This document shows positions 23,563-58,123 of a DNA stretch of 64,000 nucleotides, in pieces (within the stretch, counting starts at the first letter, position 1; each line of letters opens with the position of its first letter). The stretch comes from an uncultured Bacilli bacterium (lineage in GTDB: Bacteria; Bacillota_I; Bacilli_A; RFN20; CAG-826). The translations under genes were made by a program, and so were the position numbers. The stretch lies in assembly GCA_944363525.1 (NCBI GenBank), contig CALVUF010000003.1, positions 173,776-237,775 of the forward strand, written 5' to 3'. Under the pieces are notes generated by a model. That model was not told the DNA's origin. It saw nothing but the letters and a program-made list of their open reading frames with translations, and ran no database searches.

Positions 23563-23587
23563 CGGGGGTATTATCTTCCCCAACGGC

Positions 23588-24316: not shown

Positions 24317-24434
24317 TGCCTTCGCATTGTAGGATAGAATTGGCAAAAGTTGATAAACTTTTTTGCCGGTTTTTGGCTATTTACCCAAACTAGATCGCCC
24401 TTTATCATTTAATCGATGTTTCCTGGAGGCAAAA

Positions 24435-25217: not shown

Positions 25218-25220
25218 GAT

Positions 25221-26429: not shown

Positions 26430-26476
26430 TTAAGAAAAAGCTAGCTTTTCTCGAACAAAGCTAGTACAATTGGGCT

Positions 26477-27646: not shown

Positions 27647-27648
27647 TT

Positions 27649-28059
27649 ATGGGTAAGAAAACCGTCCGAGCCGTGGCCGCCGTCATCGTCAAAGACGGCA
27701 AGTATTTCGCCGCCAAGCGGGGCTATGGTTTCCTAAAAGGCTACTTTGAATTCCCTGGTGGGAAGATCGAGGAAGGGGAGACGCCGGAGCAAGCCTTGAT
27801 TAGGGAAATCGAGGAGGAACTCAGCAGCGAGATCCTCGTCCACGACAAACTATTGACGGTCAATTACGAATACCCGGACTTCATCCTGGATATGGATGTC
27901 TTCTTCGCTTCGTTAAAGCAAGGGCGGCTCCTGCTCCATGAAGGGATCCACCTTGAGGAACGGTTCTTTGAATTGGACGAAATGGACGAATCACTCTTCT
28001 GCCCGGCCGACCAATTGATCGTCGCGGCTTTGAAGCGGCGCGACTTTGCTTTGCGATAA
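27649..28059 (+). CDS. MutT/NudG-type Nudix (d)NTP pyrophosphohydrolase
   Basis: GYFEFPGGKIEEGETPEQALIREIEEE is nearly identical in pattern to the E. coli MutT Nudix box region. It starts 2 nt after the MTase stop. Confidence 0.85.
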   Translation: MGKKTVRAVAAVIVKDGKYFAAKRGYGFLKGYFEFPGGKIEEGETPEQALIREIEEELSSEILVHDKLLTVNYEYPDFILDMDVFFASLKQGRLLLHEGIHLEERFFELDEMDESLFCPADQLIVAALKRRDFALR

Positions 28060-35332: not shown

Positions 35333-35699
35333 GGCAAATAAACTATTGGTTTCCCTAGGTTGGAGGGTAGTAAATATAAATAGGAAAAATCGTTTTTCTG
35401 TCAAGGGTTCTGCCCCCAAAAGAAAGGATTTTCGTTCCCAAATTTCGGATTCATATTTTTTCGTTGACAGCGAATGAAAAAGCACATTTTGGGAAAAACT
35501 GGGTTAAGAGAGATTTTTGCTCGGCTAAAAAAGGGGCTTTTTTTTCGGACGCTTGATTTAACTCCAGCAATAATTCATTGACTTACGTTGCTTTTGGCGT
35601 AAAAGAATGTAAAATCTATGTAAAATATTTTGATGACGGCAGCAAAATAGTCTCTCCCCAAGGTCCAGAAAGCCTTTTATCTAGGATAAAAGTTTTCAT

Positions 35700-42012: not shown

Positions 42013-43185
42013 TCATAACCATAAGGTATTGAACAGCATGTCGTCGAGGTTCCGGTAGAAGGGGTTGTTGAAGGACCCTTTCCCTTCCCAGAACAAGGAA
42101 CGGAAGTAGGCTTTCTCGGCATTGGGTTTCTGGTCGTAAAGCGAGGCCTCGGCGATGATCTTCCGCCCCATCTCCTCGATGCCGTATTCCTTATAGGGAT
42201 CGAGGCCGAATAAGGATGCCACCCGTTCCAAGTTAAGCAAGAAGAAGGCGACTTCGTTTTGGTTTTTCAATCGTTTGGCCCCGGTCGAGAGCTTCTTAAA
42301 GGCTTTGTTCACGAAGCTAGCCCCGAACTTCAATCCTTCTTTGGCGTGCTTCAAAGCCAATGATTCCAAGGCTTTGTTCGGGTGGAAGCAATACTTCTCC
42401 CCCTTATTGATCCCGAGGGCGACCTTGGCGTCGAGATAGCCGAGCTTGATGTTCTTATCGATCATCTCCCGGTTGAAGGAGAGGAAACTCCCTTGATCGC
42501 GCGAGGGGGAGATCATGATGACGTTGGGAAGACGGAAGTATTCCTTCTTTTGGGGCGGGGGGAAGCATTGGAGCTCGATTCCGATGACCTTATCGGCCCC
42601 AAGCTCGAAGCAATAATCGATCGGGACCTCGTTTTTCCATCCCCCGTCGACATAGGACTTTTTCCCGATCTTGCACACCGGGAAGGCGGGGAAGCAGGAA
42701 CAGGAAGCCAAAAGGTAATCCTTCACTTCCTCGGGTTTTAGTTCATTGAGGAGATAATGCTCCTCATTGAATCCGGGATAGGTGCAAGCCACGATCCCCA
42801 TCTTGACTTTGAGGTTCGCCACGTCGATCCCCTCAAGGTTATCCTTGATCATCTTCTTTAAAGGGGTGACGTCGGCCCCGATGTGGTCTTTTAGATAGGA
42901 ACGGAGGAACTTCTGGAACTTCGAGTCTTTCTTTAAGGAAAAAGTATGGGTGATGGGCAAGGCGAAATCGAACCCATCGACGATGACGTCATCGATGGTG
43001 ACCGATTCCCAGACCTTCTTCATTCGGTCCATTCTCGCGGCCGCGAGCAAGGTTCCATTCAAGGCCCCGATCGAGGTGCCGGTGATGACGTCGAAATGGT
43101 ACCCGGCGGACAAGAGGGCTTGAATCGCCCCGTATTCATATCCCCCGAGGCTCCCGCCCCCGCTTAAGGCCAATCCCCATTTCAT
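42013..43185 (-). CDS. Patatin-like phospholipase
   Basis: The N-terminal Gly-rich segment GGGSLGG serves as the oxyanion hole. GTSIGA is the GxSxG nucleophile elbow. Confidence 0.8.
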   Translation of the reverse strand: MKWGLALSGGGSLGGYEYGAIQALLSAGYHFDVITGTSIGALNGTLLAAARMDRMKKVWESVTIDDVIVDGFDFALPITHTFSLKKDSKFQKFLRSYLKDHIGADVTPLKKMIKDNLEGIDVANLKVKMGIVACTYPGFNEEHYLLNELKPEEVKDYLLASCSCFPAFPVCKIGKKSYVDGGWKNEVPIDYCFELGADKVIGIELQCFPPPQKKEYFRLPNVIMISPSRDQGSFLSFNREMIDKNIKLGYLDAKVALGINKGEKYCFHPNKALESLALKHAKEGLKFGASFVNKAFKKLSTGAKRLKNQNEVAFFLLNLERVASLFGLDPYKEYGIEEMGRKIIAEASLYDQKPNAEKAYFRSLFWEGKGSFNNPFYRNLDDMLFNTLWL

Positions 43186-43270: not shown

Positions 43271-43990
43271 ATGGAATATAAACTCATCGCCCCCGATACC
43301 TATAAGCTCATCGAACCGGGGCCGGCCGGCCGGGTCAATATGTATTTGCTCCTTGGGAAGGAGAGAGCCCTTTTGATCGATTCCGGTTATGGTAAGGCCG
43401 ATCTAAAGTCCACGGTCGAGCGGTTAACCAACTTACCGGTCATCCTCTATAACACCCATGGTCATCCCGACCATGCCTTAGGCTCCTATGCCTTCGACGC
43501 TTATTTACGGAAAGAGGATGAGGACATCTATCTATCGGCCACCGAACCCCAATACGGTATCAGACGGGCGGCGATGAAAGAGCTCCCCTTAGGCGAATTG
43601 GACTTAGGGGGTCGGAAGGTCTTGGTTATCTTGACTCCCGGCCATACCCAGGGCTCGATCTGCGTCCTCGACCCCTTAGCCAAGATGGCTTTCGTCGGCG
43701 ATACCATCAACCCGGGCGAAGTCTGGCTGGGTCTTCAGGAATCAACCGGGGTGGGGCAATACCTTGAATCCTTATTAACCTTGCAAAAGGCCTGCGAAAG
43801 ATTGGAAATCGCCTATATCCAGTCCGGCCATTCAGCCAAGCCGATGAACATGAATAAGCTCGCAAACCTCATTCATTTATCCCGGAATATCCTATCCGGC
43901 AAAACCAAAGGGAAAGCGGTTAACGAAGGGCTTTGCCAAGGGCATCGGGCGACCTATAAATACAATTGCATAATTTACCGCGATCTATGA
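43271..43990 (+). CDS. MBL-fold metallo-hydrolase
   Basis: Contains the HGHPDH (HxHxDH) motif. Confidence 0.8.
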   Translation: MEYKLIAPDTYKLIEPGPAGRVNMYLLLGKERALLIDSGYGKADLKSTVERLTNLPVILYNTHGHPDHALGSYAFDAYLRKEDEDIYLSATEPQYGIRRAAMKELPLGELDLGGRKVLVILTPGHTQGSICVLDPLAKMAFVGDTINPGEVWLGLQESTGVGQYLESLLTLQKACERLEIAYIQSGHSAKPMNMNKLANLIHLSRNILSGKTKGKAVNEGLCQGHRATYKYNCIIYRDL

Positions 43991-44334
43991 AACTCGACCT
44001 TTCCTCTTTGACCAATGACCCCTCGCCCTTAGTCAAGCGGGCCGAGGAGGTTTTTCGTTCAGGCAAGGTGTTTAGCCTTCGTCGCGACGGGAATGCTTTC
44101 TTTGCCCGGGTCGAAGGGAAAAGCAAAGCCAGCTACCCGGTGACCATCCACATCGATGGGAATGGCCGAATGGATAGCTATAGTTGCGACTGCGAAGCGT
44201 CGCGCCGCTACCCGGGCCCGTGCAAGCATGTGGTGGCGGCTTTATTCGCCATAAAAGAAAAGTACGCCGAGCCCGAGGGACTCGACGACGATTCCGGGTT
44301 TTACAGCGATATCGATTATTCGGATTTGTTTTAG
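43966..44334 (+). CDS. SWIM zinc-finger protein (122 aa)
   Basis: CDCEASRRYPGPCKHV is a CxC...CxH SWIM motif. It overlaps the upstream gene by 25 nt. Confidence 0.55.
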   Translation: MHNLPRSMKLDLSSLTNDPSPLVKRAEEVFRSGKVFSLRRDGNAFFARVEGKSKASYPVTIHIDGNGRMDSYSCDCEASRRYPGPCKHVVAALFAIKEKYAEPEGLDDDSGFYSDIDYSDLF

Positions 44335-44972
44335 TCGCGCCGCTTCTTGAGGTTCCGCCATAAGATCATGATGATCTCAATCGGGACCCCGGCCACCATC
44401 AATAACCATAAATCATCCCGTTGGGTACCGAGTGGTATGACGATTAATAGGGCCCATAAGGCGCAGGAAGCGAGGATCAAGGTCCCTAAGGAATTATGGT
44501 AGAAAAGATGGGTCTCGGCCGCCATTAGGAACAGGCCGATCGGGATCATCCAGAGGAACACCGGCCATAAGCCGTTTTTGTCTATGCTCTCATCGGTGAA
44601 GAAATAACGCGAGAAGAAGACGGCGATGGCGATGAGGATCAAGACGGCCAAGGTCATGGCCATGATGGTCGGCCGGTTGACGTCTTTGGGCTGGACCGAG
44701 GCGGTCTCCTTGACTTCCTCCTCCTGGTGCTCGCTGACTAAGAAATCGAGGGTCACCCCGTAGAAGGAGGCAAAATCCAAAAGGATGTCGACGCTTGGCA
44801 AAGCATAGCCTAATTCCCATTTAGAGATCGATTTGTCGGAATAATTGATTTGCCGGGCGAGATCCTGCTGGGTCATCCCTTTGGCTTTCCGAAGGGTTTG
44901 CAGATTCTTGCCGACGACGGCGGGAAGGTTTTCCATAGGCGATATTTTGTCCTTTTCTAGCCCCTTAATCAA
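44331..44972 (-). CDS. Membrane-tethered XRE-family HTH regulator (HTH plus 4 TM)
   Basis: LRKAKGMTQQDLARQINYSDKSISKWELG is an XRE helix-turn-helix, followed by four hydrophobic helices. The start is either a TTG at 44972 overlapping the upstream stop, or the ATG at 44936. Confidence 0.7.
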   Translation of the reverse strand: MIKGLEKDKISPMENLPAVVGKNLQTLRKAKGMTQQDLARQINYSDKSISKWELGYALPSVDILLDFASFYGVTLDFLVSEHQEEEVKETASVQPKDVNRPTIMAMTLAVLILIAIAVFFSRYFFTDESIDKNGLWPVFLWMIPIGLFLMAAETHLFYHNSLGTLILASCALWALLIVIPLGTQRDDLWLLMVAGVPIEIIMILWRNLKKRRD

Positions 44973-47900
44973 TAATCATAAGTCGGTTCAATGAGCTCTT
45001 TCGCATTGTTGAAGGCGGCGGAATATTGCTTGTTGTCTTTATCGTAGAACCGGTCGCGGTAGAAGGAGGCGATGCTGGCGTTGGTGGTCGTGATGTTCCG
45101 ACTTGAGACCCCCGTCACCAAGCCATTGACGATGTAGTCGGAGGCGAAGACGTCTTGGTAGACGCCGTTTTCGATGTTGGTCAAAGAGCCATTGAAGCTG
45201 ACGTTAACGTTGAGGATAGAGGCGACGCTGACGGAAAGCGAGCCGGCGAAAGAGGACAAGGTCTTTCCCCCGTTATTGAGGGTTGAGGAACCGATGGTCA
45301 GGGGGAGGTCGGATAACTGGGCGACATCGCTGCTCGAACCCAACATCTGCATCGGGATGGCGGCTAAGCCCAGGTTGAAAGTCCAACTGGGGTTGCCCTT
45401 GGAATCTAGCGTTGAGCTGAAGCCTTTGAGCAGATCCTCGCCATGGATGGCCTTGGTGGTATCGATTTTTATGCCATCGATGATGCTTTGGACCAAATCC
45501 CTATACCCTAAGGTCGTTTGAAGAATATGGCCAAGGAGGTTGGCGTTGAAGTTTTCGCCTTTGATTTTGGCGGTTCGGGCGGCGGCGCTGCTGCTGAACA
45601 AAAATGATTCAACATCATATTGTTCAACATAGGCCCAGCCATCGGGATTCGCCGTATCGTTGCCATTGATGTAGTAATAAAGGTTTACGTAACGGGTCCC
45701 GCTGGTCCTGGTTAGACTGAATCCGATGTTCATCACGTTTTTCAATGGTTCATTCAACGAAAAGAACATCATGATTTCTGATCCTTGGAGACGGATGAAG
45801 GCGTCGAAGTTGGTTTTGATCTCGTCATAAACGGGCATGTCGATGGTCAGGCTTCCGGTCAGCCGGTAAGTCGAGGTATAGCCATTCTCGACCGTCGCCC
45901 CTAAAGTCAACGACCCTTCAAGGTAATCCATGAGACTGCCTAAGGTGGAGAAATCAGTGAAGGTATAAGCCGCGCCACCAAAGACCTCGGCGATTTGCTG
46001 CTTAATCTCATTCACTTCCTTCGATTCCATGTTTTCGATTCGGATATAGACGTTTTGCAGGCTTTCGGCTGATCCGATCGCGGTGCTTAACTCAATCGAA
46101 TCCAGCCCGTTTTCCCCGTAATTCAAGGCGATTTCGATCGGTTCGCTGGTGCCGAAGGCATCAGGGGAGAAACTCACCGAATCCCGGGCTTCGGAGAAGG
46201 AGGCGGCGATGATGAATTCGCTGGAGATGGCTTCAAGGAATTTAGAGTTTGTCAGCAGGTAAATAAGTCCCGAATTCATGACCGAGGAGAACATATTGGT
46301 CAGCCGTTCAAACCGGGGATCGGAGGAGGTTAGGAAGGTCTTGGCGACTTTGAAGATCGAGGCAAAGGTCGCTTCCTCCATCCGCCCATTGAGCCCATCG
46401 GCATCATTCGGATTGGTCCGGGATCCCGATTCCCCGTCCGGGATTTTTTCGGAGTTCTTCGAGTCATAATGGAAGAGCAAGGAATTCTTCTTCTCCCCTT
46501 GGGAATCGACATAGCCTTGGTCGGAATAGGACAGCTGGAGGTGGTGGTTGTTCCGATACTCGGCCTTCCGGTCATAGACGGTCAAGTTCGCCATACCTGA
46601 TTCCGATTCGACGTCAAAGGCCGCCTGTCCTTGGAAGCCGAAGCCGGTTTGCATATAGGCGAGGTCAGGGAGTTCGCTTGGAACGCTCGATTCGCTAAGT
46701 TTTCCAAAGTATCCGGTGATTTCAAAAGAGCCATTACGGGCTTCGTTAAAGGAAGCGAGCCCATCGGCTAAAGTCGGGAGGTGGGTTAAGTGGTGGTAAA
46801 GGGTAGGATCGATTGACTCCGGGGCGACGTAGTTCTCGATGGTGATGGTCCCGTCGAAGGTCAAGTTGCTGGCCCCGGCTTCCTTTAATTCAATCCGGGC
46901 TAGTTCGTTGCTTTTCCCGTCCAAGGTCAAAGCGACCTGGCCTTTTAGGCCGACTTTATCGAGGTCGAGGGTGGCGACGATCTTGTTATCTTCGTTATGA
47001 AGGGAATCGACTAAGGTGATGATCTCTTCGTAACGTCCTTCTCTTAAGGAAGCGATTAAAGAGGAATTGAGGATCGGAGAGATGAAATCATTGAGCTTTA
47101 GGAAAGCGAATAAGACGTCATAGGAGGCGGCCGCTTCGCCAAAGACATCGCCCAAGGAATTGATTAAGGCGTTGATGGTCGAAAGCTCGCTATAGGCGTT
47201 GACGACGCCGTTTAAGCTTAGATAGGCGTTATCGTCGACTAAATCGATTTGCAAGGATTGGCTATGGTTATTGCAACTAGTCGAAGCGGCGATGCTTAAG
47301 CCTTTTAAGTTCCCGCCGCCGACATCGACTGAGGAATCAAGCTTCATGATGGCCGTCTCCTCGATGGCGGGCCTCGCAAACCCATAATCACCTCCGTCAT
47401 AGGCTTCTTCGCTATGTTTGACGGTGACGCCATCTTCGCCGGTAGAGAGGTTGAACTGGGGCGCGACCGCCAGGAGGGCGATCTTTTTGAATAATTCTAA
47501 GGAATCGTTGAGTTCAGGATATTCTAAGGCGGCTGGATCGACGGCGAAGTTGGCCTTCCGATCCGTCAAGGTGGCATTTAAGGAATAACCGATGCCATCG
47601 TTAACGAAATAACTATCGGTATTGGGCAGGTTAATGGCTTCTAAAATCCCATTCCCGACTAAACCAATCGGCAGGGTCATCTCCCCTAAGGGGAGTTCCC
47701 AAAGGTAATGGGCGTTGTCATCGTAAGCCGGGTCGAGGCTGATGTTATTTAGCGATTCTAAGACCGCCATCGCATCGATTGGCGAGGTCTTTGATTGAGA
47801 GACCTGGTACTGATAGCCTCCATCGGTGATGGCGTTAAGAATGGTGTCGATGCAGTAATCGAGCATCCCATAATCGTAATAGATGATGCCCCCGGTCAAT

Positions 47901-48379
47901 TCGTCTTCGACTGGGCCGTTCTCATCGGTCACGTCCATTGAAGACAAGGAGACTTTATAGGATAGTTCAACCTCGTCATAACGGGTGGGATCGGTCAATT
48001 GGACATAGAGCCAATCGTTATGAAGGTTCAAAGTTAGGTTGAGCGATTGCTCGTTATAGGTTAATGGCAAGTCGGCGAATAGCGATATGCCGTGCATCGA
48101 GAAGGAAGAAATGGCAAGATCAAGCCGCCCATCGTTGATCTTAATGACGTTATCGACGCCTCCGAGATCGATGGCTCCTTGGATATCAAGACTCAACCCT
48201 TCGGCGAGCGAGGAAAGCAATTGCTGGGGGAAAGAGGGCGCGTTCAAAGTGGGTTCATTGGTCGCGTCGGTGCTTTCTTCCGGCTGGGCCGTCGCTTTAT
48301 TCTTTGGCGAATAGGAAGCGAGGAGCAGGGAAGGGAAGAGAAACAACGGGAGGATATGGGAATAAACCCTTTTACCCAT
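44969..48379 (-). CDS. Giant (1136 aa) membrane-anchored or secreted beta-rich protein, paralog A
   Basis: N-terminal signal/TM LPLFLFPSLLLASYS. Long runs of alternating hydrophobic residues (LNLTLNL, LDLAISSF). It shares motifs with paralog B. Confidence 0.85.
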   Translation of the reverse strand: MGKRVYSHILPLFLFPSLLLASYSPKNKATAQPEESTDATNEPTLNAPSFPQQLLSSLAEGLSLDIQGAIDLGGVDNVIKINDGRLDLAISSFSMHGISLFADLPLTYNEQSLNLTLNLHNDWLYVQLTDPTRYDEVELSYKVSLSSMDVTDENGPVEDELTGGIIYYDYGMLDYCIDTILNAITDGGYQYQVSQSKTSPIDAMAVLESLNNISLDPAYDDNAHYLWELPLGEMTLPIGLVGNGILEAINLPNTDSYFVNDGIGYSLNATLTDRKANFAVDPAALEYPELNDSLELFKKIALLAVAPQFNLSTGEDGVTVKHSEEAYDGGDYGFARPAIEETAIMKLDSSVDVGGGNLKGLSIAASTSCNNHSQSLQIDLVDDNAYLSLNGVVNAYSELSTINALINSLGDVFGEAAASYDVLFAFLKLNDFISPILNSSLIASLREGRYEEIITLVDSLHNEDNKIVATLDLDKVGLKGQVALTLDGKSNELARIELKEAGASNLTFDGTITIENYVAPESIDPTLYHHLTHLPTLADGLASFNEARNGSFEITGYFGKLSESSVPSELPDLAYMQTGFGFQGQAAFDVESESGMANLTVYDRKAEYRNNHHLQLSYSDQGYVDSQGEKKNSLLFHYDSKNSEKIPDGESGSRTNPNDADGLNGRMEEATFASIFKVAKTFLTSSDPRFERLTNMFSSVMNSGLIYLLTNSKFLEAISSEFIIAASFSEARDSVSFSPDAFGTSEPIEIALNYGENGLDSIELSTAIGSAESLQNVYIRIENMESKEVNEIKQQIAEVFGGAAYTFTDFSTLGSLMDYLEGSLTLGATVENGYTSTYRLTGSLTIDMPVYDEIKTNFDAFIRLQGSEIMMFFSLNEPLKNVMNIGFSLTRTSGTRYVNLYYYINGNDTANPDGWAYVEQYDVESFLFSSSAAARTAKIKGENFNANLLGHILQTTLGYRDLVQSIIDGIKIDTTKAIHGEDLLKGFSSTLDSKGNPSWTFNLGLAAIPMQMLGSSSDVAQLSDLPLTIGSSTLNNGGKTLSSFAGSLSVSVASILNVNVSFNGSLTNIENGVYQDVFASDYIVNGLVTGVSSRNITTTNASIASFYRDRFYDKDNKQYSAAFNNAKELIEPTYDY

Positions 48380-48382
48380 CGC

Positions 48383-51300
48383 TTACTCCTGACTTAGATA
48401 GTAATTGCCGGCCGGCCCATCCTTATGGGTGAACTTCTCGGTGGCGAAGGCGGAAGAAACGTCTTTTCCCTTTTCATCGATGAAGTAGGTGCGGTAGGCG
48501 TTTTCACAGAAAGCAAAGCCATCGGCGTAAACTCCGTTGGCGAGGTTATTGAGTTTGGCTTCTAAAGCGATCGAGCAGACGCTTAATTCGCCCTTTAAAG
48601 CCAATCCGGCGTCAAGGCTGATCCGTTCGATCGCATGGAACTTGGTGTCGGCGCTCGAGGCGTTGGTCCCGTAGATTCCGAGGTTCATATCGCCTAAGAA
48701 TCCAAACCCGGTCAATTCGCCTAAATCCAATCCCATTTCCAGATAGGGGGCGGAATCGGCTTCCCCTAAGACGAACTTATTCAAGATGTCTTCGGGATGG
48801 ATGGCCGGCAGCTCGAAGGCAGTGGGTTCGCTTTCGGTGGCGACGGTCTCTTGTTCAAAGAAGGACTCGTTGATGCCGAGGAGGTATTTAAGTAGGTACC
48901 CCGGGATATCGGAAAGGAAGGTCGCCCCGTCAAGTCGGAGGGCGTCTTTGACGTTGCGGAGCCGCCCATAGCTGGAATCGCGGGTCATTAGCACTTCGCC
49001 CTCGGGATCGATCCCATCGGCATAGTAATAGAAGGCGACGTCGCGGGTCCCTAAGTATTCCTGGGGCCGGAAGTAATGGATATCCTCCGGGGCGTTGATC
49101 CCTTTGACTAAGGGCATGTCCTTGATCTCGGCGTAAAGCATGGTTTTCGCCCCTTCTAACCGAGCCCCGAGTTTGAGTTTGAGGGCGTTGAACTCGTATT
49201 GGCCGAGGACGATATCGAGGTTGGCCTCGACTTCATAGGTCGAAACCCCGAAGTTATCTTTGGCCCCTAAGGTCAAGGTATCGAGGAAGTAGCTCGAAAG
49301 GTTGGCTAAGCCACCGAGGTCGGTGAATTGATCTTCGGAGATAGAGGATAAGTAGGAAAGGTTCTCGGCGCTGGCTTTGGTGTCTTTTAAACTGATGGTG
49401 AGGTTGAAATCCTCGTTGGCGATCTGACCTAAGATCGATAAAGAGGAGAAACCGCCTTCGGTGAATTCGCTCCCTTCCTGGGGCGCGGCCTCATAGGCGA
49501 TCGTGATGGTGACTTCCCCTTCTAAGCCGAGGGAAGAGCCATCTAAGACGAAGACGTGGTTATCGCCTGCAACCGAGGCTGACTTAATGACGTGGAGGCG
49601 GAGGAGATCGAAATACTGGCCTTTGGTCAAAGAGCCGAGCAAGGAAGAGGAGGTCTCGGGGGCTAGGCTGGCGAAGAGCCGGTTGAAGCGGTGTTCCAAC
49701 TTGTCTAAGCCCATAAGCGAATCCATTAAGGGGGATAAGGAATCGATATTCATCTTGCCCCGTAATGGAGTGGTGTTCTTCGGGTTGTTGGCATTCCCTT
49801 CCTTATAGGAGGAATAGGAGAGGCGGGCTTGGTCTAACTTGCCAGCTTCGTCGGAGGATAAATCGGCTAAAACGGTGTGGGTATTGCGGGAATTTTCCTC
49901 CCCGGCGGTGATTTCCATCTTCAAGGCCCCTGCCGCTTGATTTAGGTCAAAGGCCAGGGTCCCGTTGGCTTCGATTTCCCCCAAGCTCAAGTTGAGGCCG
50001 AGGGTCGCCTGCTTGGAGTTCGCGATGGCTTCGACTTGCTCGGCCACCCCGACTAAATGGGTGAGTTCCTGGTATTGGGCTTTGGCTTCCTCGTCTAAAG
50101 ACGGGGCTTTGAAAGCGGTCGTCTTCAAAGACCCATCGAAAGTGAAGGAAGCGAATTTGATGCTGTTAAAATCGATGTTAAGCAAGGACTTCCCTTCGTT
50201 GCCGTCCAAGGTCAAGGTGAGCCCCCCTTCGATGCCAATCGGCTCTAGGGTGATCTCGACTTTGATGAGGTTGTTATCGTTTTTGATGCTCTTTAATAGA
50301 TTGAGGGCGGCTTCGTAATGGCCGTCTTGGAGGCCGGCCGCCAAATCCCCTTGGAGGTAATTGGTGATGGCGGAGACGACGCTTCCGGTCATATCCATCT
50401 GTGACTCGGTGATAGCCCCGTCTTTGTCGGAAGCTAAAGCGTCTTTTATCTTGCCAAGCAATTCATCGTTGGTGACTTTGCTGGTTTTGGCTTTCAAGAC
50501 GTTATTGACGTTAAGATAGGCCTCCCCATCGAGGATATGGGTCGAAAGGGTCTGACTGGCAGATTCATCGTCATTGACGTAGAGGCCAAGATTGGCTTCG
50601 GCCGAGCGGAAGACCCGTTTATCCATGTCGACCTGGCCATTTAAGGCTAAGGTCGCCTTTTCGTCGATCGCGTCTTTCCCGACGACTAGAGTCGAGGCTT
50701 CGATCGCCTCTTCCTGGTGGGTTAAGGAGGCGTTGAGCTCAAAGCCGAACTGCGGATGGGCGACCATCCCGGCTAAGCCGCGGAATAAGCCCATCGAATC
50801 CTCAAGCCGTTTATACTCTTCTTTCGGATAGGGCAAAGACCAATTGATGGTCCCGGCTGAGGAGACGGTGGCCGAAAGGTCGAGAGTCAAGTCATTGCCT
50901 AAGGAAACCGACCCATCGGTATAAGGCAGGTCGATGCCGGTGAGGTTATAGGCGGCATCGGTCTTTAAGCCAATCGGCAAGGATAATCCGGCGATTTCCA
51001 AATCCCATTGGAAGTAGGGGGAACCGCCGACGGTGGTTTCTTTCATCGCGTCCATCGAGGCGAGGATGGCGTTGACGTCGAGGGCGGAACCCGTGGATTC
51101 GCTTGAGCCAGCCAGGGCATCGCCAATCGAAGGGAAGGAGACGTTGATGTCGCCATCGCTTAGGATCGAGAGGATATCCTCGATGACCCAGTCGAGCTTG
51201 CCGTATTCGTATTGGAGGATGCCGCCGGTGGTCGGATCCTCTTGGGGATTGCCATCGGAATCCAAGATATCCTCAGAGGCGGTTGAGACTTTGTATTTGA

Positions 51301-51754
51301 AATCGTAATTGGTCCCATCGTCTTGTTTATTGGAGATGGAGAAATAGATATTGTCGTCGAGCAAGGCCAATTCGAGGGACCGTTGCTTGGAATTGTAATC
51401 GACCGGGGCTTCGATGGTTAAATCGATGCCATGGAGGTTTAAAGCCCCGAGGGCTAAGTTGACCTTGGCCCCGTCGAACTTCAAGGTGTTTTTCTCATTT
51501 AAGGATAAGGTCGCCTGATCGAGGGTCAAGGAAAGTCCATCGCCCATCGCTTGGTCGAGGAGGGAGTTGATCAGGATGTCCTTATGGGTTTGCTGGCTCG
51601 GGGTCGACGGGGTGGAAGGGTTGGGATTCGAATCACCATCGACGACGGTTTCGACTTTTTGGGGCATCAGGTAGTAGGTAACCCCGGTCGAGACGCCGAA
51701 GAAGGCGAGGAAGAAGAGCCCGCTGACGAGCAGGGATTTGGTTTTAGCTTGCAT
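48383..51754 (-). CDS. Giant (1123 aa) membrane-anchored beta-rich protein, paralog B
   Basis: N-terminal TM LLVSGLFFLAFFGV. Segment DILDSDGNPQEDPTTGGILQYEYGKLDWVIEDILSILSDGD aligns with paralog A segment DVTDENGPVEDELTGGIIYYDYGMLDYCIDTILNAITDGG. It lies 3 nt upstream of paralog A. Confidence 0.85.
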   Translation of the reverse strand: MQAKTKSLLVSGLFFLAFFGVSTGVTYYLMPQKVETVVDGDSNPNPSTPSTPSQQTHKDILINSLLDQAMGDGLSLTLDQATLSLNEKNTLKFDGAKVNLALGALNLHGIDLTIEAPVDYNSKQRSLELALLDDNIYFSISNKQDDGTNYDFKYKVSTASEDILDSDGNPQEDPTTGGILQYEYGKLDWVIEDILSILSDGDINVSFPSIGDALAGSSESTGSALDVNAILASMDAMKETTVGGSPYFQWDLEIAGLSLPIGLKTDAAYNLTGIDLPYTDGSVSLGNDLTLDLSATVSSAGTINWSLPYPKEEYKRLEDSMGLFRGLAGMVAHPQFGFELNASLTHQEEAIEASTLVVGKDAIDEKATLALNGQVDMDKRVFRSAEANLGLYVNDDESASQTLSTHILDGEAYLNVNNVLKAKTSKVTNDELLGKIKDALASDKDGAITESQMDMTGSVVSAITNYLQGDLAAGLQDGHYEAALNLLKSIKNDNNLIKVEITLEPIGIEGGLTLTLDGNEGKSLLNIDFNSIKFASFTFDGSLKTTAFKAPSLDEEAKAQYQELTHLVGVAEQVEAIANSKQATLGLNLSLGEIEANGTLAFDLNQAAGALKMEITAGEENSRNTHTVLADLSSDEAGKLDQARLSYSSYKEGNANNPKNTTPLRGKMNIDSLSPLMDSLMGLDKLEHRFNRLFASLAPETSSSLLGSLTKGQYFDLLRLHVIKSASVAGDNHVFVLDGSSLGLEGEVTITIAYEAAPQEGSEFTEGGFSSLSILGQIANEDFNLTISLKDTKASAENLSYLSSISEDQFTDLGGLANLSSYFLDTLTLGAKDNFGVSTYEVEANLDIVLGQYEFNALKLKLGARLEGAKTMLYAEIKDMPLVKGINAPEDIHYFRPQEYLGTRDVAFYYYADGIDPEGEVLMTRDSSYGRLRNVKDALRLDGATFLSDIPGYLLKYLLGINESFFEQETVATESEPTAFELPAIHPEDILNKFVLGEADSAPYLEMGLDLGELTGFGFLGDMNLGIYGTNASSADTKFHAIERISLDAGLALKGELSVCSIALEAKLNNLANGVYADGFAFCENAYRTYFIDEKGKDVSSAFATEKFTHKDGPAGNYYLSQE

Positions 51755-51769
51755 GGATATCGCCTCCGA

Positions 51770-52726
51770 TTAAGCTTCGTAAGCTGAGTAATCGATCGAT
51801 TCGGATAAGGAAGGGATGCTGACTTCCTTAGTCGAATAATGGGTGGTGAGGGAGCCGGTGCATTTGGATTTGATGAACCCCATGTCGGCTTGGTAACGTT
51901 CATGGGTGGTCATGGAAATCAGATTGAGGTCAGCATCGGTGACGACGGTCAGGTGGCAATACTCGAAGACCGGGTAGCTCTTTAAGCCGGAGATGGTCTT
52001 CATCTGCTTTTGATAATTGGCGATGCCGGGCATGACGTCGTTTTCGATCTTCATCTCGATCTCGATGGTGTAGCCATTGCCGTTATCGTAGATCCCGGTT
52101 TCCTTTTGCCCGGAGATGGTGGCGCCTTCCATGATGGTGGAAGGGGAGACGATGTAAATAAGCGGATCGGAGACGGTCCGGCCCATCAATTCGGCATAGG
52201 CCTCATTGGTCATGGTTTCCTCGGGATGGGAAGCGTAATCATCATCGGAACCCCAATAGGTTTTGGTGGATTCCCCTTCTTCATACATCCGGTTATAAAT
52301 ATTGACGATGCCGAGGGAGTTCGATTCCTCGAAATACTCCTCGCCGTTTTTGATTGAGCAGGATTGGATGGTTTGCTTGGCGATGCCGGCATCGGATAGG
52401 CCGACCCCGATGGCTTTGCCGTATTCGGCGTCTTCATAGAAGGAGTAGGCTAGGTTGACCGCTTCATCGGCGGTTAAGGCGTCTTTAAAGGAGGTGCCGT
52501 CTTCTTTGGCACCATTGTATTTGGCTTTTGCTTCCATCAAGTAGGCGTCGCCGACTTGATAGGAGTCGCCATTGGCCACGTGCTGGACGAGCGGTTGCTT
52601 GAAGGCGCAGGCGCCGGCGAAGCCCGCCCCGGCCCCGAGGACGACCGCGAAGGCTCCAAGCATCGAGTAACGGAAGCCTTTCCGTTGGGTGAGTTTCTTT
52701 TTGTTTTGCTTGTTGGTGGTGTTCAT
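51770..52726 (-). CDS. Membrane-anchored or secreted protein (318 aa), first gene of the giant-protein operon
   Basis: Basic N-terminus followed by a hydrophobic helix (MLGAFAVVLGAGAGFAGACAF). It ends 16 nt upstream of paralog B. Confidence 0.65.
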   Translation of the reverse strand: MNTTNKQNKKKLTQRKGFRYSMLGAFAVVLGAGAGFAGACAFKQPLVQHVANGDSYQVGDAYLMEAKAKYNGAKEDGTSFKDALTADEAVNLAYSFYEDAEYGKAIGVGLSDAGIAKQTIQSCSIKNGEEYFEESNSLGIVNIYNRMYEEGESTKTYWGSDDDYASHPEETMTNEAYAELMGRTVSDPLIYIVSPSTIMEGATISGQKETGIYDNGNGYTIEIEMKIENDVMPGIANYQKQMKTISGLKSYPVFEYCHLTVVTDADLNLISMTTHERYQADMGFIKSKCTGSLTTHYSTKEVSIPSLSESIDYSAYEA

Positions 52727-53128
52727 TTACTTTCCTGCCGAGCGTCATTCTATAGAATGGGGGCCAGTTAGCACTCTATTTCCGCCTTTCCGGCTTGTAG
52801 ATAGCCGTTCTCTATATTGGAGAAATCTGAATTTATCCGATGGTTAGTAGGGAAATTAACCATGTAACAAATGTAAGAGAATTCGAAAATGTTAGAAAAT
52901 AGCCATCTCGTTTTAATAACTAGATGTCATAAGGAGAAGAAAAAATCAGCCCTTCATCGGAGGTTAAGCAAGTAATGGACAAAACGGCCGAAATGTTTAT
53001 TAACTCCGTTGGAAAACCATTAATATCTACCGGTTTTGCGTCTACTTCTGTTATGAAATATCCGCCTTTTGGTGGCGTTTTTGCGACTTCTATATCGCAA
53101 AATCTACTTATTTAATCGGTTTTTGCCG

Positions 53129-54313
53129 TCAATTCACTTTCGTTTCCAAGAAGCCGAATAAGTCCTCTACTTGCTGGAATCCGCCGTAATAGACGTCGCT
53201 CATGTCGTCTGATCGATCGGGATTGGAGTAGAAATCGACGCCCAAGAAGGTCTTAGTTATCTCGTTGAACTTCGCTTCCAGATCGATGTCTTGGTATTGC
53301 TCAGGATAGCAAGTGGCCCCGACCCAGTAGGCGTCGCAATAGGCGATCTCCAAGTTGGTGTAATAGGAGTTGTACGGCATCTGAAGGTAGACCTCGCCTT
53401 CTTCGACGGCCTTAATACTCGAAAGGATTTCTTTCTTCTCCTCGCTAGCTAGGTCGCCTTTTAAGATGGCGAGGCTGCTGGCATCAAGAAACACCTTGTC
53501 GGGGGAATCGAGAATCAAGTCCTCTAAGTTGACGTTGCCTTGATAACCGGTGAGCCCTCTCTCGTCAAGGACATTGGTGACCCCGGCCGCGTCGAAAATC
53601 GAATACTGGGCGGTCGAGGATTCAAACGACTTCAACCCATAACGGGCTTGGCCGGCCAAATAGGCCCGAACCCGTTCGGAGTCGGGGATGTCTTTCTGCC
53701 GGGCTTGGAGGTCGGCGTATATCCCCTCGATATAGGCCACCAGTTCGTTGGCCCTTTCTTCTTTGTCCAAAGCCTGGCCAAGGATCTTTAATGAGTCATA
53801 AAGGGTTTGATCGAAGGCTTCGGTCTCCCCATAGGAAAGGGTCACCACCGGTACCCCTAAATCTGATTGCAAAGTATCCATTCCGAGCTTATCGGTGTCA
53901 TAAGCCGAGATGATCAAGTCGGGACGACATGATAGGATGGCCTCTTCCTCGACTACCTGGGCTTTGGGGCCGCCGGTGCCGCAAGATGGGAGATCGGTCC
54001 AGTTATGGCCAAAGACTTTTTGATAAGGCCTGAGGGCATAAGGGGAATTAAGATAACCGAAAGCCCCATCGTCGCCGGAATCGACTTCGATCCGTTCAAC
54101 CCCGGCGAGTTTGTCTTGGTCCCCGATATAGGAATAAAGGCGTAAGGCCCCGGCCCCGATGCAGACAATCCGTTTGGCCTCGCCTGGCACTAGGCTCACT
54201 TCTCGACCTAAGGCATCGATGATGGTGATTTGGTTAGGATTGCTGCTTATTCCCGGATTAGTCCGGCATCCAGTAAGTAGAAGAACGTTGAGAATAAGTA
54301 ATGGTTTTTTCAT
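53129..54313 (-). CDS. ABC importer substrate-binding lipoprotein (Fe-siderophore/cobalamin type, FecB/FhuD/BtuF-like)
   Basis: Lipobox LLLTGC. Two-lobed periplasmic binding protein pattern. It sits in an operon with a FecCD permease and a FecE ATPase. Confidence 0.75.
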   Translation of the reverse strand: MKKPLLILNVLLLTGCRTNPGISSNPNQITIIDALGREVSLVPGEAKRIVCIGAGALRLYSYIGDQDKLAGVERIEVDSGDDGAFGYLNSPYALRPYQKVFGHNWTDLPSCGTGGPKAQVVEEEAILSCRPDLIISAYDTDKLGMDTLQSDLGVPVVTLSYGETEAFDQTLYDSLKILGQALDKEERANELVAYIEGIYADLQARQKDIPDSERVRAYLAGQARYGLKSFESSTAQYSIFDAAGVTNVLDERGLTGYQGNVNLEDLILDSPDKVFLDASSLAILKGDLASEEKKEILSSIKAVEEGEVYLQMPYNSYYTNLEIAYCDAYWVGATCYPEQYQDIDLEAKFNEITKTFLGVDFYSNPDRSDDMSDVYYGGFQQVEDLFGFLETKVN

Positions 54314-55065
54314 AAGTATGAGACGAAGAGCTCGCCATCGAGGAGTTTGATCTTCAGATCGACCCCGTAGGCTCGCTGCAACACTTCCTCCGTTAATGAT
54401 TGTTTGTTTGGGATATGGATTAACCTTTCTTCGATTAAGAGATAGAACTCATCGGCCAATCGATAGGCCAATTCGATGTCATGGAGGCAAGCGAGGATGG
54501 CTTTGCCTTTGCTGGCCTCTTCTTTCAATATCCCCATCACCTCTTTGGTGGCTTTCACATCCAAGGCTGAAGTCGGCTCATCAAGCAACATTATGTTGGC
54601 ATCGTTAACCAAGGCTCGGGCTAAGGCGACTTTCTGTTTCTCCCCTCCCGATAGATGGGAGGCATCTTGATAGGCGAGTGATTGCAGGCTCAATCTTGAT
54701 ATGGCTTCCTCGGCTTTCTTTAGATCCGCTGGTTTATAGATGTGAGGGGAATAAGGCAAGCGACCCATCAAGATGGCGTCGATGACTGGGCTATTGGCGA
54801 AACTCGGGCTTTGGGGGACATAAGCGATTTGCTTGGCCAATTGGCTTCGTTTTATCTGCCGATAATCCTGACCATCCAGTGTTATTGTCCCAAGATTCGG
54901 CTTTAGCAATCCCAGCAATAGGCGAAGGATGGTGGTCTTACCCGCCCCGTTATTGCCAAGCAAGACGGCGATTCGGCCGGGCTTAAGCTCTAGCGAGGCT
55001 TGCTTAAGGATCGGCTTCTCCTTTTTCGAGTAGGCGAAATCGATATTGGTGAATACTAAACTCAT
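54310..55065 (-). CDS. ABC importer ATP-binding protein (FecE/FepC-like)
   Basis: Walker A is GNNGAGKTT, the signature is LSGGEKQK and Walker B is MLLDEPTSALD. Confidence 0.9.
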   Translation of the reverse strand: MSLVFTNIDFAYSKKEKPILKQASLELKPGRIAVLLGNNGAGKTTILRLLLGLLKPNLGTITLDGQDYRQIKRSQLAKQIAYVPQSPSFANSPVIDAILMGRLPYSPHIYKPADLKKAEEAISRLSLQSLAYQDASHLSGGEKQKVALARALVNDANIMLLDEPTSALDVKATKEVMGILKEEASKGKAILACLHDIELAYRLADEFYLLIEERLIHIPNKQSLTEEVLQRAYGVDLKIKLLDGELFVSYL

Positions 55066-56195
55066 CCGTTTCGCCTCCGATTGGTCAAAAGGATATAGAT
55101 GAAGATCGGGGCTCCGATGATGGCGGTCAAGGCCCCAACCGGGAGATTAGTCCCGCTTAGCAAGATCCGGGATAAGAGGTCGCAGAAGAGCAAGACGATG
55201 CCTCCAACCAGGGCCGAGACGGGAATCAGATAACGATTATCCGCCCCAATAAGCCGCTTCATCACTTGGGGGATGACTAAGCCAATGAAGCCGATGATCC
55301 CGACGAACGAGACCGAGACGGCGGTGATTAGCGAAGCCAACAATAAGCCGATGAACCGGATTAACCCGACGTTGACCCCAAGGCTTTTGGCCGTTTCATC
55401 CCCTTCCTCGATGGCGTTGAGCTTGGGGGATAACAACAAGAAGACCAATAGACAGGGGAAGATGACCGCCATGAGGATATAGATTTGTTCATAGGTGGCC
55501 CTAGTCAAATCGCCAAAGGTCCAGTAGACGGCGCTGGCTAAGGCGGTGTCGGAAGCGAAATACTGGACTAAGTTGGTCAAAGCCTGGAACAGCATCCCCA
55601 GGGCGACCCCGCTTAAGGCGACGATTTCAGGGGCAAAGCCTTTGATCTTGGATAAGCCTAAAATTATTAAGATAGCCAACACCGAGAAAAGGAAGGCGAA
55701 GCCGGTTACGGCATAGGGGGAGGAGATCGATATCCCGGATGACGAGAAGGCGCCGCCGCTTAAAAAGAGGATGGCTAAGGTCGCCCCAAAGGTGGCGGAT
55801 TCGCTGACCCCCAGGGTCGAGGGAGAGGCCATCGGGTTTTTTAGGGTGCTTTGCATGACCGCCCCGGAGGCGCTTAACCCCATTCCCACGACGATGGCGG
55901 CCAATACCCTTCGACCTCTTATATTCCGGATGATGACATTGGCCTCATGGCTCCCTTGCCCAAAAATAGCGAGGAATTCATCACCCCATGAGAGGCCATG
56001 ATTATCGACTAGTAACGATAACAACGCGAAAACTAGGAGCAAAAGCAAAAGGACCCCCAGGAGGATATAGCGGTTTCGGATGAGTTTTTGCCTTCGGCTT
56101 AGCAAGGTGAGGGAAGCGTCTTTTTCCATCGGAGTTATGTTTGTTCCGCACGGGCGCGATTGCAAATGGAATAGGGCGGATATCGGGCGAATCAA
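55062..56195 (-). CDS. FecCD-family ABC permease (start uncertain: TTG at 56195 or ATG at 56129)
   Basis: About nine transmembrane helices and the FecCD signature region ...GGIVLLFCDLLSR...GALTAIIGAPIFIYIL. Confidence 0.8.
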   Translation of the reverse strand: MIRPISALFHLQSRPCGTNITPMEKDASLTLLSRRQKLIRNRYILLGVLLLLLLVFALLSLLVDNHGLSWGDEFLAIFGQGSHEANVIIRNIRGRRVLAAIVVGMGLSASGAVMQSTLKNPMASPSTLGVSESATFGATLAILFLSGGAFSSSGISISSPYAVTGFAFLFSVLAILIILGLSKIKGFAPEIVALSGVALGMLFQALTNLVQYFASDTALASAVYWTFGDLTRATYEQIYILMAVIFPCLLVFLLLSPKLNAIEEGDETAKSLGVNVGLIRFIGLLLASLITAVSVSFVGIIGFIGLVIPQVMKRLIGADNRYLIPVSALVGGIVLLFCDLLSRILLSGTNLPVGALTAIIGAPIFIYILLTNRRRNG

Positions 56196-56823: not shown

Positions 56824-56908
56824 GCATCGGCGGAAGTCGATAAAAACCTTAAAAAAGTTCGGCATAAAACCATAGGCAATTCTTGCTTGTAGTAGTATAG
56901 TCTTGATA

Positions 56909-58123
56909 ATGAAAAACAATCTACTCCGCTTGGTCAGGCGCAGCAAGGAAATGACCCAGGAAGAGGCCAGCAGCGCCCTCGGATTACCCTTAAGGACTTA
57001 CTCGGATTACGAGAACAAAGAGGAACGGCTTGATAGTCTCAAATACCGTTATCTGCTGTCCTCACTTTCGGAGTATTCCCCGACCGCCTTCAGCTTCGAT
57101 TACAACTTACTGCCGTATCTATTGACCTCCGGAGTCGGTTTTGTCTTTGCTTATCCCTATTTCGGCGAAACCCGGATCATCGCCGACAAAGAGGCCTTTT
57201 TGCCTGGTGGGATAAAAGTCAGCGTCCCCGCCGACCTCAGCAAGGAAGAGTTGGTCCATGCCCTTCAAAATGGGCGGATTATCTACCGGAAGGACGAAGG
57301 GCAGTCTTCCCTGGTAAGCCATCCGGCCCCGATCAATCGACTGACTTTCAATGGCTTACGGGTCTATGTCGATGACATGGCTTTGACCGGAATGGAGAAA
57401 CTGCTCGGCAAGGAAGGGAAGTATACCTACCTCGCCTATTTGCTTTCCGACCAAAACCGCTTCCTCATCTCCGTCATTTATAAAGGGAAGCAACGGCAAT
57501 TCAAAGGCTCGCTCCTCCACCTCTACGATGAACTGTTTGGCTTTATCAAGATGGTCGGTGGGAAGAACGCCGAGGCTATCATCAAGGCGATCCTCTGCTT
57601 CGACTATGAGGCGGCCGGCGAAGCCCGGGTTACCATCCTTCCTTCTTCCTTTTCCTTTGACGCCCCGGCCCGGAATCATCCCGATCCGTTGCTCGAGCTC
57701 CTCTATGAGCAGTATTTGAACGCCAATGAGGGCTCTGATAACGAAAATGATAATGAAAACGGCGGTGAAACTTCTTTATCAAAGCCTCAAAATGCAGTTG
57801 ATAATGAAAACGTTATCACTGCAGAAAAACAAGAAACCATCGAAGAAAAACGAGATAATGATAAAGTAAGAAAACCTAATGAGGAAGGTTTGAAACAAAT
57901 TTCTCACTTCGAAAAGAACCCGCTCGATGAACTTAACGGCAAGGAGAGATTGGTCCTTTCCGAGGTCAAAAAGAACACCCATATCACCCGTAACGAATTG
58001 ATTGAAATCACTTCGATAGCCCCGGCGACCTTGTCCCGGATATTTAAAACATTGAAGGACAAAGGGTTCCTCCGCCGGCAGGGATCGGACAAAACGGGTT
58101 ATTGGGAAGTAATTGAGAAATAG
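56909..58123 (+). CDS. Two-HTH regulator: N-terminal XRE-type HTH and C-terminal MarR/winged-helix-like domain, separated by a low-GC acidic linker
   Basis: N-terminus LRLVRRSKEMTQEEASSALGLPLRTYSDYEN. C-terminus ITRNELIEITSIAPATLSRIFKTLKDKGFLRR. The ORF-track start at 56903 is a TTG, so I prefer ATG 56909. Confidence 0.65.
   Translation: MKNNLLRLVRRSKEMTQEEASSALGLPLRTYSDYENKEERLDSLKYRYLLSSLSEYSPTAFSFDYNLLPYLLTSGVGFVFAYPYFGETRIIADKEAFLPGGIKVSVPADLSKEELVHALQNGRIIYRKDEGQSSLVSHPAPINRLTFNGLRVYVDDMALTGMEKLLGKEGKYTYLAYLLSDQNRFLISVIYKGKQRQFKGSLLHLYDELFGFIKMVGGKNAEAIIKAILCFDYEAAGEARVTILPSSFSFDAPARNHPDPLLELLYEQYLNANEGSDNENDNENGGETSLSKPQNAVDNENVITAEKQETIEEKRDNDKVRKPNEEGLKQISHFEKNPLDELNGKERLVLSEVKKNTHITRNELIEITSIAPATLSRIFKTLKDKGFLRRQGSDKTGYWEVIEK

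Follow-up and report, generated by a model that had tools for sequence, protein, structure and literature searches.

A conserved surface module with predicted LolA-like folds and its own membrane-bound regulator in Mollicutes-related Bacilli

The 64,000-nucleotide stretch of DNA analyzed here (the window), from contig CALVUF010000003.1 of an uncultured Bacilli bacterium, carries a cassette of four genes that encode a protein of 318 residues (S318), two giant surface proteins (GA and GB), and a transcription regulator of the XRE family that combines a helix-turn-helix (HTH) domain with transmembrane (TM) helices. As a preliminary description of this DNA had it, the four genes are co-directional open reading frames (ORFs) on the minus strand with tight spacing or overlap, and the region upstream of them is AT-rich. 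The genes and the features of their leader region are as follows:

52726..51770, minus: S318 gene, ORF of 318 amino acids (aa), for a probably membrane-anchored protein with a predicted LolA/LolB/LppX/LprG-like fold
51754..48383, minus: GA gene, ORF of 1123 aa, for a giant surface protein
48379..44969, minus: GB gene, ORF of 1136 aa, for a paralog of GA
44972..44331, minus: XRE-TM regulator gene, ORF of 213 aa from a TTG start
52727..53128, minus: AT-rich leader (38.6% G+C, against 51.9% for the window) with phylogenetic footprints, seen as blocks in an alignment of six loci
52809..52823, minus: 15-bp palindrome TCTCCAATATAGAGA, a candidate operator, 97 nt upstream of the S318 ATG
52746..52759, minus: perfect 14-bp palindrome CATTCTATAGAATG, 33 nt upstream of the S318 ATG

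In the ORFs as called, 15 nt separate S318 from GA and 3 nt separate GA from GB, the GB and regulator genes overlap by 4 nt, and Shine-Dalgarno-like sequences are found 5' of S318, GA and GB. The true start of the regulator is likely to be the ATG at 44936 and not the upstream TTG, because an alignment of its orthologs shows a MENL start; this would yield a protein of 201 aa, and therefore no overlap with GB.

The layout of the cassette is far beyond chance, since it recurs in 18–20 related loci and a triad of regulator, S318 and giant is found in seven more distant ones. A survey of its distribution, which the preliminary description had suggested, was made by tblastn with the four proteins against 21 loci, and the whole cassette was found in every locus long enough to hold one (18–20 syntenic loci). 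The gene order is S318-GA-GB-XRE, with a variant, S318-GA-XRE-GB, in L007, L009, L011, L013 and L018. In the seven distant loci, with G+C contents of 30–47%, a protein of ~200 aa with an HTH_3 domain and TM helices, usually divergently encoded, is followed by an S318 homolog (292–355 aa; hidden Markov model (HMM) E = 1e-72 to 1e-91 where checked) and then by one or two giants, and the regulator is present with S318 and giants in all triad loci. In the tblastn comparison with the 21 loci, the regulator is the best conserved of the four proteins, with 42–50% identity in distant loci, followed by S318 (~41%), GA (~30%) and GB (~26%). The cassette is flanked by syntenic housekeeping genes, including those for an RdgB/HAM1-like protein, ClpB, RuvX, thioredoxin and PepF, so that the module, judged from its surroundings, is chromosomal and vertically inherited; an origin from a mobile element was considered and rejected on the same grounds.

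Protein searches place the surface proteins of the cassette in nameless families. A word-indexed search of 5.8 billion proteins returned 24 relatives of GA, all without a name; an exhaustive search of 1.84 billion representatives with a GA-family profile gave 345 matches, 220 of them at E <= 1e-30; and a broadened S318 profile collected 219 clusters, all nameless and without Pfam domains. S318, GA and GB drew no match from Pfam or NCBIfam with the threshold relaxed to E <= 1, six distant members of the giant family are likewise without a Pfam or NCBIfam family, and nothing meaningful came from sequence searches of the PDB with S318 and the giant-family profile. In PADLOC and PHROGs, S318, GA and GB have no matches and the regulator has generic HTH matches only. 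We found no description of these families in the literature, nor, in databases or literature, a well-characterized homologous family with an identical operon context.

The few organism labels attached to the protein clusters read 'Bacilli bacterium', 'Firmicutes bacterium' and 'Ca. Enteromonas', and the loci come from Ca. Alloenteromonas and from metagenome-assembled genomes (MAGs) of gut and rumen labeled Erysipelotrichaceae, Bacilli or Mollicutes. In the GTDB taxonomy these genera belong to the order RFN20. A published survey predicts two families of RFN20 to be without peptidoglycan and the order as a whole to be without sortases (PMC10868615). Four of the MAGs, those of L008, L010, L015 and L016, have titles that name Alistipes shahii, Parasutterella excrementihominis, Lachnospiraceae and Paludibacteraceae. 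These 'cleanbin' bins seem to be mislabeled, since L010 and L016 share the Bacilli-type synteny of the other loci and the cassette is present in L008 and L015 as well.

The 15-bp palindrome upstream of S318 belongs to a family with the consensus TCTCCnAATCGGAGA, whose members precede the S318 gene in 24–25 loci. When the window and the loci, 648 kb in all, were scanned with the motif TCT[AC]NNAWWNN[GT]AGA, 32 copies were found, against 3.7 ± 1.7 in shuffled sequences. Twenty-four of these lie 30–111 nt upstream of called starts of S318 orthologs, the distant loci L022–L032 included, and a 25th runs into the called start of S318 in L014, which has probably been extended too far. A further copy is located 64–96 nt upstream of the second giant in each of the five loci with the regulator between the giants (5/5); loci without the strict motif carry one-mismatch variants at the same place, and the 64-kb window holds exactly one copy. 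Because the palindrome is co-conserved with the regulator cassette, we infer that it is the operator of the regulator. Its conservation with the cassette also strengthens an idea of the preliminary description, that the regulator could couple an envelope signal to transcription. The second palindrome, CATTCTATAGAATG, is invariant in the window and in L001–L005, with a single copy in each locus and none in the rest of the 648 kb, yet the proteins of these loci are 47–86% identical; it could be a second operator or part of a promoter or leader.

The regulator has the HTH and four-TM architecture that had been described for it, with an HTH_3 domain at residues 24–78 (44739–44903; Pfam E = 1e-14) and four hydrophobic segments, predicted by hydropathy to be TM helices, within residues 102–205 (44358–44669). 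In an alignment of 25 sequences the HTH domain is nearly unchanged (NYSDKSISKWELGYALPSVD), and the HTH + four-TM layout is kept in all 25 orthologs. Polar residues are conserved inside the membrane part (W..W in TM2, E...HN, S...W, and G-PIQ in TM4), which argues for a sensing domain and not a passive anchor. A comparison of size and layout alone brings to mind BcrR of Enterococcus faecalis, a membrane-bound bacitracin sensor of the XRE type that is listed among transmembrane transcription regulators (PMC10269533): both have an N-terminal XRE HTH, four C-terminal TM helices and no large extracellular domain, and in both cases an inverted repeat lies upstream of the genes controlled, or presumed to be controlled. 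BcrR differs in that it controls an ABC exporter and UppP, which are not the genes of the module. A tblastn search found HTH + TM relatives of the regulator on plasmids, 27–29% identical over residues 19–188, none of them annotated as BcrR.

S318 consists of a TM helix at residues 16–42 (52601–52681) and a predicted beta half-barrel domain at residues ~53–300 (51827–52570). Its AlphaFold2 (AF2) model is of high confidence (predicted local distance difference test (pLDDT) 90.3, predicted template-modeling score (pTM) 0.82) and comprises the TM helix, three further helices, and 11 strands with two helical inserts. The motif G31xxxG35 is near-invariant in the anchor helix and FEESxSxS is invariant in the domain. 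The preliminary description had taken S318 for a secreted protein; it is more likely to be membrane-anchored, because of the near-invariant GxxxG helix and because its orthologs show no conserved cleavage site or Cys. A lipoprotein signal at FAGAC was also considered and rejected, as the Cys is not conserved. In profile-profile comparisons S318 shows no relation to the giants or their domains, and no case of an S318 domain fused to a giant occurs in the family.

In a Foldseek search of the PDB, S318 matched LolA (9azz, 4mxt, 7tpm), LppX (2byo), LprF (4qa8), LolB, RseB, EPDR1 and a staphylococcal protein (4egd), with a probability of ~1.0 to more than 10 LolA-like members, template-modeling (TM) scores of 0.4–0.5 and E = 7e-5 to 1e-3. 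S318 is thus predicted, from its model, to have the lipid-carrier fold of LolA, LolB, LppX, LprG and RseB, an open antiparallel barrel of ~11 strands. The same fold is suggested, less strongly than for S318, for the domains of the giants, since local matches of the GA model include LprG (3mh8; probability 1.0, TM score 0.40) and RseB (probability 0.99). By sequence profile, S318, GA and GB have no Pfam, NCBIfam or PDB match to the LolA-like clan.

GA and GB are membrane-tethered, beta-rich paralogs, as had been proposed, and are collinear from end to end (25% identity over ~1160 columns, E = 3e-69 in a BLASTP pairwise alignment). The segment TGGI(L/I)xY(E/D)YGxLD, reported earlier as shared by the two, is indeed so and is near-invariant across the giant family. 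The AF2 model of GA (mean pLDDT 72.6, pTM 0.53) begins with a TM helix at residues 4–28, followed by a disordered low-complexity linker and by eight units, each of one helix and 5–7 antiparallel strands. When the eight units were compared with one another, the five best pairs were all of the same parity, and D2 (GA residues 317–554) aligned with D3 (555–813) at 98.1% probability (E = 1e-13, 192 columns; hhalign on a 148-sequence alignment). HMMs of D1, D2 and D3 also cross-match one another. Because the best unit pairs share parity, D2 and D3 align end to end, and the D1–D3 HMMs cross-match, each giant is an array of four tandem domains of ~250 aa, each made of two units; a model of eight equal repeats was rejected, given the same-parity pairs and the end-to-end alignment of D2 with D3. 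The domains are placed as follows:

50807-51586, minus: GA D1, ~250-aa domain
50093-50806, minus: GA D2, ~250-aa domain
49316-50092, minus: GA D3, ~250-aa domain
48455-49315, minus: GA D4, ~250-aa domain
GB residues 49-288, 290-520, 524-810 and 811-1083, minus: GB D1–D4, from domain HMMs

The low-confidence stretches of the GA model (residues 207–224, 440–461, 700–702 and 968–980) lie within domains, at helical inserts, and the junctions are well predicted. Relatives share the architecture D1-(D2-D3)n-D4, where n = 1 in the proteins of the window, 2 in proteins of ~1450 aa, 3 in one of 2150 aa and ~7–8 in one of 4042 aa. This last member (L024 8001–20129) has a lipobox and ~16 domains, with a gene for a class-3 lipase directly after it; it is encoded on a 66-kb contig from an NCBI assembly of more than 500,000 contigs, and may come from a symbiont or a contaminant in a eukaryote assembly.

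The giants are tethered in more than one way. The GA-type N-terminus is a TM signal-anchor (GA residues 4–28) followed by a conserved Y-x-x-x-P-Q. Orthologs of GB in L004–L019 have a lipobox with its Cys (for example LLLSSC, FSLSSC or LLASC), and in the window's clade (window and L001–L003) this Cys is replaced, giving LLLASY or LLLSSL; the signal of GB in the window reads LLLASY, without a lipobox Cys. Its N-terminus is a degenerate lipoprotein signal, and the replacement in this clade means that family members have come to be anchored in different ways. Across full-length family members, 34 of 148 have a lipobox-like signal and 96 of 148 a TM helix or signal peptide (130/148 in total). Another kind of start is found in the second giant of L025 (13418–17452) and of L026 (7559–11593), a protein of 1344 aa that begins with a type IV prepilin-like sequence, KRSGFTVIELIIVIAIMG, with a weak match to Pfam N_methyl.

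In at least five different contexts, genes for lipid enzymes are found next to the module. In the window, a phospholipase gene lies 1.1 kb downstream of the cassette:

42013..43185, minus: patatin-like phospholipase gene (Pfam Patatin E = 1.5e-27)

This gene adjoins the cassette in seven loci (cluster 14), and is seen in L013 as well as in the window's clade; it may be associated in function, and is only a candidate for membership of the operon. Elsewhere, genes for a PAP2 phosphatase, a GT2 glycosyltransferase and a PlsC-type acyltransferase lie directly downstream in L028 and L030, with PAP2 present also in the truncated L027; a GT4 glycosyltransferase and LPG_synthase_TM stand beside the regulator in L023 and L025, a Lipase_3 gene follows the 4042-aa member in L024, and an esterase and a diacylglycerol (DAG) kinase are found beside the module in L031. 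ABC-FtsX transporters and PAP2 are among the neighbors in L028 and L031. The link to lipids that these neighborhoods convey is suggestive, and anecdotal.

Taken together, these data make it very likely that the cassette is a conserved, co-regulated surface module with LolA-like folds. That this self-regulated, surface-tethered module of Mollicutes-related Bacilli binds or transfers lipids is the interpretation we favor, at a probability of roughly 0.5. The preliminary description had also raised lipid transfer, and here the idea gains from the LolA/LprG/RseB-like models and the lipid-enzyme neighbors; the AsmA/TamB form in which it was put finds no support, and nothing about a Bacilli host suggests a second membrane to bridge. 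In the mechanism envisaged, the XRE + four-TM protein would act as a one-component regulator that binds the 15-bp palindrome in front of S318, and the copy in front of the second giant where this is separately transcribed, and would tune expression to a signal sensed inside the membrane. S318 is predicted to sit on the outer side of the membrane, fixed there by its one helix, with an open beta half-barrel as its globular part, and to be accompanied by one or two giants, which have either a membrane helix or a lipid anchor as their tether and whose D1-(D2-D3)n-D4 chains would be related beta half-barrels with helical inserts. These chains may bind hydrophobic molecules, such as fatty acids, phospholipids, glycolipids or sterols, and exchange them between the cell's environment and its membrane, S318 being the partner closest to the membrane. 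Lipid uptake, glycolipid export, and the sequestering of harmful amphiphiles are alternative purposes for such a module.

Among known systems, those nearest to the proposed arrangement by predicted fold are LolA-like proteins. LprG, LppX and LprF of mycobacteria, which carry glycolipids and triacylglycerides, are like the module's proteins tethered to the outer face of the cytoplasmic membrane in organisms that are not classical Gram-negatives; they share the predicted pocketed open beta-sheet fold (Foldseek probability ~1.0 for both S318 and GA) and are likewise encoded with envelope-lipid genes (PMC4214796, PMC4709180, PMC10576003). Lipid handling by this fold is documented for LprG (PMC4214796, PMC4709180). 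They differ in lacking sequence similarity and in having a single domain of ~200 aa, against 4 to ~16 here; the module, for its part, has no conserved MFS partner but a dedicated membrane-bound XRE regulator. LolA and LolB of diderms have the same predicted fold class as S318 (11 strands and helical inserts, TM score 0.4–0.5), whereas S318 has no Pfam LolA/LolB match and is TM-anchored, the cassette is without LolCDE, and the host has no known outer membrane to deliver to. RseB/MucB, also a high-probability fold match, partners with a membrane-spanning transcription regulator and binds lipid-like signals. That the fold exists in Bacilli follows from SsdC of Bacillus subtilis, which is MucB/RseB-like (PMC7769602). 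RseB, MucB and SsdC have no sequence match here, the regulator of the module is a DNA-binding XRE protein and not an anti-sigma factor, and the module has far more domains.

A bolder version of the lipid interpretation is speculative and in our view rather doubtful. It pictures a new kind of extracellular lipid relay in bacteria that lack an outer membrane and perhaps a wall too, in which chains of LolA-like pockets, with a reach set by amplification of D2-D3, would hand host or dietary lipids to S318 and from there to the membrane, while the regulator reads the lipid status of the membrane. The closest functional analog of the proposed role is P116 of Mycoplasma pneumoniae, a surface protein of ~1000 aa in a wall-less, lipid-dependent relative of Bacilli, which extracts and delivers lipids without ATP (PMC10023570, PMC12487902). 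P116 differs in having another fold and no such operon partners, and its chains in the PDB show no sequence match with the giant-family profile. If the relay were real, it would correspond in function to bridge-like lipid transfer proteins and to P116 while relying on another fold.

Several observations weigh against a role in lipid handling. Structural similarity is modest overall (Foldseek TM scores 0.3–0.5, E = 1e-4 to 1e-3), whole-chain matches of GA are poor (LptD, TM score ~0.1), and GerS offers a case of a LolA-like fold in a non-lipid role, as the activator of an amidase (bioRxiv 10.1101/2025.01.13.632879). S318 also has invariant residues of acidic or polar character (EES-S, R146 and E276), which could mean an enzyme or a non-lipid ligand. 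The giants diverge fast relative to the regulator (26–30% identity where that of the regulator is 45–50%), a trait typical of adhesins and surface antigens, and so is the pilin-like graft of L025 and L026, where a prepilin-like signal precedes giant-family domains that begin at residue ~323, so that the domain array appears to have been grafted onto a pilin-like N-terminus. The 4042-aa member is a single exception to the partnership, as neither S318 nor a regulator or operator lies within 28 kb of it, and in L029 and L032 the neighbors are unrelated to lipids.

Part of this evidence would be expected of an adhesin or coat, in which giant fibrils of variable length attach the cell, perhaps a wall-less one, to host mucus, food particles or other cells, or replace the wall, with S318 assembling or anchoring them and the regulator setting phase or level. 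The N-terminal tethers, the varying copy number of D2-D3 (up to ~16 domains), the faster divergence of the giants than of the regulator, and the relative with a type IV prepilin-like signal, as in modular pilins with grafted binding domains, all fit such a role, as does the reported absence of sortases from RFN20, which would call for other means of anchoring (PMC10868615). However, no family of adhesins, Ig-like domains, lectins or repeats emerged from Pfam and NCBIfam scans, by fold the giants and S318 match lipid carriers best and not adhesins, and the lipid-enzyme neighbors and strict LolA-like partnership would be left unexplained; we regard this alternative as unlikely. The beta-solenoid or beta-helix adhesin of the preliminary description is rejected, as secondary structure assigned with DSSP on the GA model consists of strands of 6–17 residues in antiparallel meanders interleaved with helices, with no adhesin families detected and no solenoid structures among the GA fold matches listed. 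An AsmA/TamB-like bridge, with each giant forming one continuous beta-groove that carries lipids between two membranes, shares with AsmA, TamB and YhdP the N-terminal anchor and a very long beta-rich body of repeated units, variable in number among relatives; the rhythm of about eight units of a helix and 5–7 strands resembles a repeating beta-groove, and the pTM of 0.53 with well-predicted junctions suggests a fairly rigid rod. Yet membership of this family, also put forward earlier, finds no backing in Pfam or NCBIfam (no AsmA, TamB, DUF490 or Chorein_N match at E <= 1), and neither TamB, VPS13 and ATG2 nor P116 appear among the 50 Foldseek matches listed for GA, where discrete LolA-like half-barrel proteins match highly. 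The parity of the units shows that two of them form one domain, and the hosts are Bacilli, presumably monoderm or wall-less, with no known outer membrane (PMC10868615); of all the alternatives we hold this one the least probable.

Two further alternatives start from the regulator. In an envelope defense system, BcrR-like sensing of bile acids, antimicrobial lipids, lipopeptides or bacitracin-like agents would induce pockets that soak up the compound or hand it off. The regulator has the BcrR layout (~200 aa, XRE HTH and four TM helices), the operator candidate and the module are conserved together, the bacteria live in gut or rumen, and PAP2 and ABC-FtsX genes neighbor the module in L028 and L031; PAP2 phosphatase and ABC-FtsX transporter genes are frequent in peptide-antibiotic resistance loci. 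Against this, the resemblance to BcrR is one of layout, the neighborhood is a conserved housekeeping one and not a resistance island, and the triad is without a dedicated exporter, so that we consider a defense role improbable. It is also conceivable, and in our judgment quite improbable, that S318 and the giants are signaling accessories, the extracellular parts of a sensor that report the state of the envelope to the regulator as RseB does to RseA. The RseB-like fold match and the strict gene partnership agree with this, and the GxxxG of S318 together with the intramembrane polar residues of the regulator suggests helix-helix contact. However, more than 2200 surface residues, and proteins of up to 4042 aa, are excessive for a sensor, the genes regulated would be just the sensor itself, and the 64-kb window has no second copy of the operator.

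The fold class and the layout of the regulator are already known. New, in that no description was found in databases or literature, are the tandem arrays of variable length, the strict partnership of these arrays with S318 and the membrane-bound XRE regulator, and the operator candidate that extends across the family. Reduced, host-dependent gut bacteria related to mycoplasmas are common in humans and animals and are uncultured, and how they supply and manage their lipids is largely obscure; the module, present in every locus recovered from these lineages, occupies 8.4 kb where genomes may be small, to judge from one related contig of 1.17 Mb. If the lipid interpretation is right, lipid transfer would gain a new architecture, in which LolA-like domains stand in tandem, the length of the array can be tuned, and a membrane-bound regulator is dedicated to it. 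It would also offer a way into the physiology of RFN20-type bacteria, and perhaps into growing them. Should the function be another one, the regulator-operator pair and the domain family still make clean, testable predictions.

An Rfam scan of the cassette and its leader returned zero family matches, and a consensus scan for promoters and terminators gave site numbers in the region not above those in shuffled sequences. A candidate promoter (-35 TCTACA, -10 TAGAGT) is for this reason only a guess, and one possible end of the operon was picked out by the consensus scan only:

44265..44287, minus: terminator-like hairpin, ~45 nt 3' of the regulator stop

Converging on the operon end is the gene for a small SWIM zinc-finger protein of 122 aa (43966–44334, plus strand), found at the same position in six loci (cluster 17). 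Directly upstream of the cassette lies a FecCD-type ABC importer (binding protein, ATPase and permease; 53129–56195, minus), which occurs only in the window's clade (L001–L005), inserted between the cassette and its otherwise conserved upstream neighbors.

Farther away, the window encodes two additional, unusual regulators of the XRE type, one with two HTH_3 domains (252 aa, 23588–24346) and one with HTH_3 and a C-terminal MarR/winged-helix domain (406 aa, 56903–58123). PlsX, a phosphate acyltransferase (4213–5229), bears on phospholipid synthesis, and an LD-carboxypeptidase of family S66 (22564–23694) hints at muropeptide handling. Two proteins are poorly characterized, one of 646 aa (142–2082) with an OB-fold match only and one of 1234 aa (11356–15060) with weak UvrD-helicase matches only. 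A low-GC island (25000–28000; 43–46%, against ~52%) holds genes for an MTaX1 'methylase-associated' protein (25221–26429) and a C-5 cytosine DNA methylase (26477–27646), preceded by one for a PhoH-like ATPase, and is probably an acquired modification or defense island; a Vsr-NUDIX fusion is encoded at 15499–16404. Finally, two adjacent genes for GGDEF diguanylate cyclases (347 and 410 aa; 33213–35485, minus) are a notable possession for a relative of reduced, Mollicutes-like bacteria.

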